In this document: piece after piece, positions 29,503-30,318 of the stretch
Numbering within the stretch: the first letter of the stretch is position 1
How the letters are laid out: every line of letters starts with the position of its first letter
Source of the DNA: Candidatus Algichlamydia australiensis
GTDB taxonomy: Bacteria; Chlamydiota; Chlamydiia; Chlamydiales; JAJFMI01
Length of the DNA: 64,000 bases
Direction: 5' to 3'
NCBI GenBank assembly: GCA_033977065.1
Contig: JAXCHI010000002.1
Location: 26,901-90,900 of the forward strand
Position numbers and translations under genes: made by a program
The notes under the pieces: generated by a model
Database searches by the model: none
Seen by the model: only the letters and a program-made list of their open reading frames with translations
What the model was told of the DNA's origin: nothing

Positions 29503-29569
29503 TGTCTTCGGCGCGATTCGAACGCGCGACCTGTCGCTTAGGAGGCGACTACTCTATCCAGCTGAGCTA
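29503..29569 (-). repeat. 67-nt duplication of tRNA-Arg lacking the first 7 nt (att-like site or pseudo-tRNA)
   Basis: Matches 30245-30311 with one substitution. Confidence 0.92.
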
Positions 29570-29904
29570 AGAGTCTCAATGACTTCTTCAAGGTCTATTT
29601 GAAATGTAGGAAGGCTTTCTCGAATTGTTTTCCAAACAATTTCGTGATCTACATCAAAATAGGCATGAATAAGCCGATTTCTCATGCCTACAAGCGCTTT
29701 CCAAGGAATATGAGGAAATTTTTTCTTGGTTTTATCTGAAATTTGACCCGCAGCTTCACCAATAATTTCAAGCTCTCGTAGTACAGCAGATTGGTAGAGA
29801 CGGTTGTTCCTAAGTGAAGCTTTTCGTTTGCCTTTCGAAAAATCGAGAATGGCGTTTGTGGAATCGAGCATATGCATCAGTCGGAGCAAATCTTTATTTT
29901 CCAT
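29554..29904 (-). CDS. HEPN (DUF86/HepT-like) RNase toxin
   Basis: LEIIGEAA, IPWK, GMRNRLIHAYFDVD (RX4HXY). Confidence 0.92.
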   Translation of the reverse strand: MENKDLLRLMHMLDSTNAILDFSKGKRKASLRNNRLYQSAVLRELEIIGEAAGQISDKTKKKFPHIPWKALVGMRNRLIHAYFDVDHEIVWKTIRESLPTFQIDLEEVIETLSSAG

Positions 29905-30196
29905 AGATAGTCTTTGCAGTTGCTAATACATCGTCACGAAAATAGGGGCTCAAGTCGTTTGGAGTTCTAAGATCAACCGGATATCCGAAGATCTCGCTCA
30001 GCTCCGATTCCATTTCTACAATCCCAAAGAGATTAGGGATATGTGCTTTTTCAAATTTCACTAAGACATCAACATCACTTTTTTTCGTAAAATATGGGGT
30101 GATAACTGATCCAAATAGAGCAAGATAAGCAATATGATGTTTTTTGCAAAAATTGGAAATTTTTCTTTTTTCTATTTTTACAGGGGTTTTACTCAT
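29894..30196 (-). CDS. Minimal nucleotidyltransferase antitoxin (MntA-like)
   Basis: LFGS...SDVDVLV, VDL; overlaps the HEPN gene start. Confidence 0.92.
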   Translation of the reverse strand: MSKTPVKIEKRKISNFCKKHHIAYLALFGSVITPYFTKKSDVDVLVKFEKAHIPNLFGIVEMESELSEIFGYPVDLRTPNDLSPYFRDDVLATAKTIYGK

Positions 30197-30244
30197 TTGA
30201 CTACCTCCTTTCCCTCATATTGTATCATTTTTTCAAAATAATGT

Positions 30245-30318
30245 TGTCTTCGGCGCGATTCGAACGCGCGACCTGTCGCTTAGGAGGCGACTGCTCTATC
30301 CAGCTGAGCTACGAAGAC
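30245..30318 (-). tRNA. tRNA-Arg(CCT)
   Basis: GTCTTCG acceptor; TAGCTCAGCTGGATAGAGC D-arm; GTCGC-CTCCTAA-GCGAC anticodon arm; GTTCGAATC T-loop; CCA not encoded. Confidence 0.96.

Follow-up and report, generated by a model that had tools for sequence, protein, structure and literature searches.

A toxin-antitoxin (TA) pair, mntA-hepT, lies directly behind the tRNA-Arg(CCT) gene of Candidatus Algichlamydia australiensis and is closed on its far side by a 67-nt partial copy of the same tRNA. This 742-bp unit is probably the scar of a single-crossover insertion that involved no integrase of its own and that carries a class I HepT/MntA addiction module. All positions refer to the window, the 64,000-nt stretch of DNA that was analyzed, which contains the murE-amiA cell-wall cluster, DUF5399, TLC nucleotide transporters, and gnd-lepA. 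The source genome, labelled G000, is that of an environmental member of the Chlamydiales and comprises 1.8 Mb on 7 contigs (93% complete).

ARAGORN reports one tRNA in the window, tRNA-Arg(CCT) (30243..30319, minus strand). The intact gene is delimited at 30245..30318 on the minus strand by Rfam (RF00005, 67.6 bits) and scores 85.5 bits with R1, a tRNA covariance model built from 21 tRNAs of the same genome. It is single-copy, with one cct anticodon among the 36 tRNAs of the genome, and does not encode the CCA end. Rfam returns a second, partial tRNA match at 29569..29511 (40.8 bits for a gathering score of 29, model positions 8-63). This match belongs to a tRNA fragment located at 29503..29569 on the minus strand (R1 60.1 bits), which extends from U8 to the discriminator base and is devoid only of the 7-nt 5' acceptor strand. 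The fragment is the right copy of a direct repeat whose left copy (30245..30311, minus strand), corresponding to tRNA positions 8-74, completes the functional tRNA. Blastn within the window aligns the two copies with 66/67 identical positions at a spacing of 742 nt (E 7.6e-32), which is far beyond chance. The original prediction had placed tRNA-Arg(CCT), a minimal nucleotidyltransferase (MNT) gene, a HEPN gene, and the 67-nt tRNA copy in this order on the minus strand, with a single change in the copy turning a D-stem G-C pair into G-U; ARAGORN, Rfam, the open reading frames (ORFs), and Pfam bear out the order, and the 66/67 alignment the change. The mismatch is a C to T substitution at the last base of the D-stem 3' strand, which converts G10-C25 into G-U. 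This position is a C in 34/34 relatives, so that the T of the fragment is derived, either acquired by the fragment since the duplication or already present in the donor. A second position informs on the origin of the fragment. The tRNA of this species has a T4:A pair in its acceptor stem while 34/34 relatives have C4, and the fragment carries the A that matches this lineage-specific T4. The fragment therefore stems from the tRNA of its own lineage, after the split from the same-genus genome G001. Overall, the right copy looks like a dead insertion scar and not like a working RNA.

The insert between the two copies measures 675 nt, has a GC content of 0.366 as compared with 0.43 for the window, and contains mntA and hepT only, with no recombinase or transfer gene reported by ORF and Pfam analyses. 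Read by eye, its 48-nt leader (30197..30244, minus strand) exhibits a putative extended -10-like TGnTACAAT (around 30227..30219), which is not listed by a two-hexamer scan, and an AGGAGG 8 nt before the mntA ATG. The upstream gene, mntA (29894..30196, minus strand), encodes a 100-residue MNT antitoxin (PF18765, 5e-15; PF01909, 3.1e-12), the translation of which contains the motif G29-S30-x10-D41-V-D43 (GSX10DXD). It overlaps by 11 nt with hepT (29554..29904, minus strand), which encodes a predicted HEPN RNase toxin of 116 residues (PF01934, 1.4e-27) with the motif R75-N-R-L-I-H80-A-Y82 (RX4HXY). The accessible text of Yao et al. (2020, PMC7641770) defines class I HepT/MntA modules by adjacent genes for a HEPN protein (PF01934 or PF08780) and a PF01909-type MNT protein, which carry the motifs RX4HXY and GSX10DXD, respectively. 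The domain pair and both motifs are found here, and the sequence describes an intact class I HepT/MntA (type VII) module: HepT would be an RNase of the RX4HXY type, and MntA would be expected to inactivate it through AMPylation of Y82. Both proteins give only partial matches to the NCBIfam equivalog models, under the cut-off of 60 (MntA_antitoxin, 46.8 bits; HepT_toxin, 47.5 bits). MntA matches the PDB entry 1wot_A (E 1.1e-05), whereas a sequence search for a relative of HepT with a solved structure returned none at E <= 0.001. Together, the scores below the cut-offs and the lack of a solved HepT relative indicate that the pair represents a distant subfamily.

The end of hepT merges with the scar. 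Its last four codons and stop (...ETL SSAG TAG) lie within the tRNA copy, and the ORF translation confirms the earlier claim that the SSAG C-terminus of the HEPN protein and its TAG stop are encoded by that copy. Relatives of HepT comprise 113-122 residues and end 4-11 residues past a conserved L-x-x-x-I, and the nucleotide homology of hepT reaches position 29576, 7 nt short of the repeat, indicating that HepT is full length and that its variable tail alone has been replaced. hepT is the only HepT-like gene of the genome and the TA segment is single-copy; duplication of the segment in place, as a tandem, is rejected on the latter ground.

The arrangement of this locus in relatives identifies the DNA behind the tRNA as inserted. 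The sample covered up to 8 kb behind tRNA-Arg(CCT) in 33 relatives plus the same-genus locus L010, that is 34 loci. On the tRNA 5' side, gnd (30551..32005, plus strand; Pfam 6PGD and synteny) is a conserved neighbour, and the succession of gnd and tRNA-Arg(CCT) is kept across the order. On the 3' side, the amiA stop codon is located 5-81 nt from the tRNA 3' end in 23/34 loci. Two further loci have distances of 172 and 317 nt, four are too short, and five differ (G016, G038, G003, G019, and G001). In the window, amiA (26748..27437, plus strand; Pfam Amidase_3), the final gene of the murE-amiA cluster and the ancestral neighbour of the tRNA 3' end, is separated from the tRNA by a gap of 2,807 nt holding an SLFN-type gene, an AT-rich spacer, the tRNA fragment, and the TA pair. 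Since amiA abuts the tRNA in 25/34 loci, the ancestral state was convergent with almost no spacer, and the DNA that lies between the two in the window has been inserted. A second copy of the locus' own tRNA-Arg(CCT) occurs in 0/34 loci, the sole extra match being a neighbouring tRNA-Arg(CCG) gene, and HepT is found in 0/2 same-genus or same-family genomes. This distribution, the partner of T4 carried by both repeat copies, and the derived T at the mismatch mark the insertion as a unique and recent event. The predicted insertion behind a single-copy tRNA, bracketed by a tRNA-derived direct repeat, is thus supported by an uninterrupted site in relatives, and the 34 loci, in assemblies that are fragmented and all from other species, contain no larger integrase-bearing island with the same att, which the original prediction had named as the sign of a decayed remnant.

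The closest comparison differs in its flank. In G001, the DNA behind the tRNA encodes a TetR protein and a hemerythrin-like protein and no TA pair, and the nearest copy of this hemerythrin-like gene in G000 lies on another contig with 66% identity. As G001 holds other genes at the tRNA 3' flank, this flank is a site of repeated small insertions in the genus. Several further candidates were tried and rejected. Reconstruction of an empty site from the G001 flanks failed, as these have no similarity to either flank in the window (359 and 367 of 500 shuffles score equally). A search for a near-identical copy of the TA pair in a larger island returned best matches of 76% in genome contigs and 70% in metagenome contigs, and the species-specific 29-nt pattern of the tRNA 3' end has 0 exact matches in the genome and metagenome contig collections. 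An older attR past the SLFN-type gene was also sought, and only chance-level tRNA matches of 9-12 nt are present in the window.

Could the unit result from the assembly? The TA segment might have been misjoined through the shared tRNA sequence, or might belong to a separate molecule; the assembly is of metagenome type, in 7 contigs, and a loop bounded by repeats is a graph feature that assemblers can misplace. However, the two copies differ at one base and have distinct flanks on both sides. This C/T difference interrupts the repeat, so that exact identity extends over 18 and 48 nt, the longer stretch being below the length of usual reads and larger k-mers, which argues against an assembly duplicate. 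Moreover, the hepT frame runs cleanly into the copy, the TA segment has no second place in the genome, and at least 10 like brackets are present on three other contigs or regions. An artefact or chimera is therefore extremely improbable.

As to the enzyme, ORF and Pfam analyses report no integrase ORF in the 742-nt unit, so that its description as an integrase-less cassette holds. The genome itself encodes two PF00589 proteins of 294 and 312 residues, both Xer-like by size and score and located on other contigs, and returns 0 matches to the serine recombinase family PF00239 in the 93% that is assembled. Among the PF00589 matches in 40 relatives, none adjoins tRNA-Arg(CCT), the nearest being a Xer-like gene 9 kb upstream in G007. 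Like integrative elements that target tRNA genes, the unit sits at the 3' end of a tRNA that it leaves restored and has the tRNA repeat at its far end, but it has no integrase of its own. With cis-mobilizable elements (CIMEs), it shares repeats that enclose no integration or transfer genes, if the repeats are assumed to be att sites, but no related integrase-bearing element was found in the genome.

We propose that mntA-hepT arrived together with a copy of tRNA nt 8-74 on a small circular or circularised molecule of about 742 bp, and that one reciprocal crossover with the chromosomal tRNA-Arg(CCT) would have placed the cassette directly behind the tRNA. The left copy would then complete the working tRNA, whereas the right copy would be dead and would only by accident provide hepT with its final four codons and its stop. 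The abrupt junction between hepT and U8 would be the closing joint of the circle. Such a single-crossover topology would explain the intact left tRNA, the end of the repeat, and the hepT-U8 junction at once, the repeat ending exactly at the tRNA 3' end because homology stops where the cassette begins. Because recombination between the 67-nt repeats would delete the antitoxin gene along with the cassette, the module probably helps to keep itself in place.

The same layout might be that of a CIME-type remnant or of a trans-mobilised element. The 67-nt repeats would then be the attL and attR sites of a tyrosine integrase, which would have been lost with a larger island or would be encoded elsewhere, by another element or by a co-resident genome. 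Such an enzyme would insert at the tRNA 3' end, reconstitute the gene, and leave a repeat that stops at the discriminator base, as observed here. In the right copy, moreover, the single mismatch is located 5' of the anticodon loop, at a place where differences between attP and attB would persist. Conversely, the genome has only its two Xer-like genes and no serine recombinase, and neither an island nor an integrase is seen at this tRNA in the 34 loci of the relatives. The known sublocations of integration within tRNA genes, reportedly described by Williams in 2002, are the anticodon loop and the T loop, and the identity block here starts at U8, well 5' of both. At most about 6 nt are unaccounted for between the end of hepT homology (29576) and the repeat, and a deletion by decay would have had to stop exactly there. 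In addition, both copies hold the base-pair partner that is unique to the species. Altogether, an element mobilised by a tyrosine integrase is possible but unlikely.

Other insertions in the genome bear on this choice. Self-blast of the genome reports 22 low-copy pairs of direct repeats, the tRNA pair included, with lengths of 35-600 nt, identities of 85% or more, and spacings of 150-8,000 nt. Thirteen loci with 14 repeat systems were examined, and four pairs, mostly tandem, were left out. In 10/14 systems, the end of a core gene is duplicated as a stray copy, with accessory ORFs between the two. Eight of them duplicate a 3' end (E1 dehydrogenase, Trp/Tyr permease, EamA, dnaG, glyS, icd, an MptE-like gene, and a 526-residue ORF) and two a 5' end (Fer2 oxidoreductase and ychF). 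The bracketing repeats of these 10 systems are 76-513 nt long and 85-94% identical, and their cargo includes a Fic protein, an ankyrin protein, a RicinB-like (lectin-like) protein, several unknowns, and one TA pair. This second TA pair, formed by a Gp49-like protein (PF05973) and an HTH_37 protein (PF13744), is located at G000:C4:26793-27716 (L247, 1494-2417). It is bracketed by 91-nt direct repeats, 86% identical at a spacing of 833 nt, that copy the 3' end of the Trp/Tyr permease gene, and its antitoxin ORF, which is the last one, ends inside the repeat. The nine other bracketed places, with repeats of 88-513 nt, are distributed over loci L246, L249, and L252-L257. The occurrence of at least 10 non-tRNA brackets in a single genome points to a more general process that does not involve an integrase; brackets at the ends of protein genes need no tRNA integrase, which also speaks against the attL/attR interpretation.

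The closest relatives of HepT are again found behind tRNA genes. A HepT homologue occurs in 68/400 other Chlamydiales genomes, with a patchy distribution and none in the family of Candidatus Algichlamydia australiensis itself. The closest one (75% identical) belongs to genome G353 and lies behind tRNA-Asn(GTT) in a tandem array (L289, G353:C89, 1740-5079). This array is composed, in order, of the tRNA, an MNT-HEPN pair, a 43-nt tRNA 3' half, a GT17 glycosyltransferase gene, a 45-nt half, a RelE-like pair, and a 41-nt half, the three halves being 98%, 93%, and 93% identical to the tRNA, respectively. No integrase is found on this 6.8-kb contig. Such uniform repeats of 41-45 nt that start in the anticodon stem-loop form a classical identity block, as a tRNA-specific integrase would leave, and tandem accretion of integrase-less elements is a pattern published for CIMEs in the available text of Guedon et al. 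(2017, PMC5704250). In G397 and G400, the HepT homologues are located 75 and 406 nt behind tRNA-Asn, with neither a second tRNA copy nor an integrase within 8 kb. As G353, G397, and G400 belong to one family, they may reflect a single ancestral event, and two independent tRNA-linked events are counted, at tRNA-Asn and at tRNA-Arg. Direct repeats around the TA pair were also searched for in six chlamydial relatives, and none rises above chance. A link with tRNA genes for the family as a whole was considered and dropped: among 160 diverse HEPN/MNT loci, about 6 have a tRNA within roughly 500 nt, which is near background (L080/L172, L125, L159, L185, and possibly L149 and L153). The link is thus limited to the closest HepT clade, in one family, where kinship may explain it. 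At the metagenome locus L159 (1720-2581), tRNA-Ser(CGA) is followed after 24 nt by the MNT and HEPN genes and, 12 nt further, by tRNA-Ser(GGA). The 3' ends of the two tRNA-Ser genes are identical over 32 nt, of which 3 lie past the CCA, at a spacing of 774 nt; the arrangement could be either a parallel insertion or a naturally occurring tRNA tandem.

Taking these data together, the integrase-less crossover remains our preferred explanation for the mntA-hepT unit, although several points weigh against it. The nearest genome available for comparison, G001, belongs to the same genus only and has other DNA behind the tRNA, with flanks that cannot be aligned. The 7% of the genome that is unassembled leaves room for an integrase. 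Two features would fit a tRNA-specific integrase at least equally well: the repeat ends exactly at the tRNA 3' end, and the same TA clade is found behind tRNA-Asn in G353, G397, and G400. The 10 other duplications are more diverged (85-94%) and concern protein genes, so that their mechanism may differ. Regarding the cargo, both proteins score under the equivalog cut-offs and HepT has no PDB match at the threshold given above, and its toxin activity is a prediction. As a result, between an integrase-free process of the type called "insertion with long target duplication" and a tRNA integrase acting in trans, we lean only slightly towards the former. In its favour are the brackets at protein genes, the lack of any integrase, a repeat that begins unusually at U8, and the base particular to this species that both copies carry. 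The tRNA target and the uniform anticodon-loop boundaries of the G353 array nonetheless make a trans-acting tRNA integrase a strong rival.

A broader and doubtful extension of the same observations would be an undescribed cassette system of environmental chlamydiae. Its units, about 0.7-1.2 kb long and mostly TA pairs, would have no recombinase of their own and would copy the end of their target gene. They could land behind a tRNA gene (tRNA-Arg here, the tRNA-Asn array in G353) or behind a protein gene (at least 10 cases), and it is conceivable that they stack, excise as circles through their repeats, and move on. The enzyme might then be host recombination or a host Xer protein acting on the palindromic arms of the tRNA. 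If such a system existed, it would be functionally analogous to integron cassettes and pdif modules, and would offer a tractable model for the 25-year-old puzzle of long target duplication.

A function of the tRNA copy itself was also put forward in the original prediction, according to which the TA mRNA would end in a tRNA mimic serving as decoy or processing signal. In a wider form of this idea, the acceptor-less tRNA at the mRNA 3' end might also stabilise the transcript of a toxin that acts on tRNA. The D, anticodon, and T hairpins are indeed all predicted in the context of the transcript, the copy passes the Rfam tRNA threshold, and the MNT-HEPN pair of L159 is packed between two tRNA-Ser genes. 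Type VII HEPN toxins have been implicated in tRNA digestion, as stated in the available text of PMC11586414. However, no acceptor stem can form (2/7 pairs by eye) and the fold energy is ordinary, with a z-score of -0.69 and 47/200 shuffles as stable. A tRNA-like sequence follows hepT in 0/7 close chlamydial homologues, and a partial tRNA abuts hepT in 0/189 related loci searched with the R1 covariance model (81 genome, 80 metagenome, and 29 Chlamydiales loci, with some overlap of genomes). Furthermore, the only change since the duplication weakens a stem, and the same layout occurs with the end of a permease gene in place of the tRNA. Neither an acceptor-arm mimic nor conservation in homologous transcripts, the two features by which a tRNA mimic would be recognized, is found, and a functional mimic, which these analyses leave unsupported, is highly improbable. 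For annotators, the consequence is practical: the fragment exceeds the Rfam threshold and could be called a tRNA or a pseudo-tRNA, and the C-terminus of the toxin is a fusion artefact.

The remaining DNA of the gap and its surroundings can be described as follows. The SLFN-type gene (27876..29228, minus strand) encodes a 450-residue protein assigned SLFN_AlbA_2, HATPase_c_4, and wHTH domains by Pfam. Its adjacency to amiA is common to the same-genus genome G001 (contig C5), and the gene is an older accessory insertion between amiA and the tRNA. Upstream of it, the AT-rich spacer (29229..29502; GC 0.277), in which a repeat search reports 66-nt direct and 19-23-nt inverted repeats, is context and lies outside the cassette. 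A second SLFN_AlbA_2/HATPase_c_4 gene (612 residues) is located beside an IS256-family (Transposase_mut) transposase at 16016-19457, and a third SLFN paralogue, at G000:C4:1685-3040, is flanked by 54-nt direct repeats containing a palindrome. On the other side of the tRNA, the spacer towards gnd holds at 30367-30530 a repeat of roughly 165 nt whose inverted ends span 34 nt each and which resembles a hairpin miniature inverted-repeat transposable element; it has at least 10 genomic copies at 74-97%, and weaker copies in the same-genus genome. In G033 (L190, G033:C65, 2123-5300), and also in G029 and G013, 2-3 kb separate gnd from the tRNA 5' side, the insert of G033 being an 874-residue ORF. 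Another partial tRNA is present at G000:C2:358695-358742, an exact 48-nt copy of positions 24-71 of tRNA-Ser(TGA) located 194 nt upstream of the gene. Elsewhere in the window, the mraW/rsmH methyltransferase gene is broken into two ORFs that lie in different frames (22090-22434 and 22446-23042) by a frameshift or a sequencing error, and a TLC ATP/ADP transporter is in pieces, with its N-terminal part at 35826-36647 and its C-terminal part at 35056-35574, both on the minus strand, representing a possible pseudogene or assembly error.

The genomic organization of the mntA-hepT unit can be compared with that of several known systems. No account of an integrase-less islet that carries only a TA pair and is bracketed by a near-complete tRNA duplication was found in open-access text, supplements aside. 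Integron cassettes and pdif modules are likewise very small units with a single function, often TA pairs, which have recombination sites at their borders and whose recombinase is encoded elsewhere. Unlike these, the present unit has no identified attC- or dif-like site, its bounding repeat copies the target gene itself, and the analyses gave no indication that a dedicated recombinase or Xer acts on it. In environmental chlamydiae, an insertion flanked by direct repeats is known from the Protochlamydia amoebophila UWE25 island, for which the accessible text of Greub et al. (2004, PMC548262) gives about 100 kb, conjugation genes, and 17-bp direct repeats, as compared with 742 bp, a TA pair only, and 67-nt repeats here. 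Regarding the cargo, the SO_3166/SO_3165 pair of Shewanella oneidensis, as presented in the available part of Yao et al. (2020, PMC7641770), has the same PF01934 toxin, upstream PF01909-type antitoxin, motifs, and gene overlap. The sequences are distant (47.5 and 46.8 bits against a cut-off of 60), the tail of HepT is encoded by a tRNA fragment, and the activity of the present pair is a predicted one. CIMEs, as described in the part of Guedon et al. (PMC5704250) cited above, also have att-like repeats at a tRNA 3' end and no integration or transfer genes, and their tandem accretion resembles the related G353 array. The present unit differs from them in that it consists of 675 bp of intact cargo, not of a visibly decayed integrative and conjugative element or integrative and mobilizable element, has no cognate integrase-bearing element in the genome, and is bounded by a repeat that covers 67/74 nt of the tRNA.

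TA and restriction-modification modules spread between genomes, and many of them are chromosomal without any visible vehicle. Insertion with long target duplication was reportedly first set out for restriction-modification gene complexes by Nobusato et al. in 2000. In the accessible text of Furuta, Abe and Kobayashi (2010, PMC2853133), such inserts are below 20 kb, have a duplication above 30 bp, and are devoid of mobility genes. The present locus has a 675-nt insert, a 67-nt duplication, and no mobility gene, and a single uninterrupted copy of the target is seen in 34/34 loci of related genomes, the nearest being same-genus with flanks that cannot be aligned. Its cargo is not a restriction-modification complex; the TA pair works like this class and lies outside the definition of that paper. 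The likeness thus resides in a small addiction-type module without a mobility gene, inserted in a target that is single-copy in relatives. In addition, the repeats of the systems in PMC2853133 often overlap the 3' end of a neighbouring gene, as does the repeat here. Unlike these systems, the cargo is a TA pair and the target is a tRNA without an integrase, whereas the same accessible text reports an integrase inside the insert for all three of its tRNA-derived repeats and classes them as site-specific. Together with the other brackets and the G353 array, the locus points to a lineage that often undergoes insertion with long target duplication without an integrase, and thus to a place where the mechanism of such insertion could be worked out. 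It is an unusually clean minimal example, with two intact genes, a 67-nt target duplication, no recombinase, and an ancestral arrangement kept across the order.

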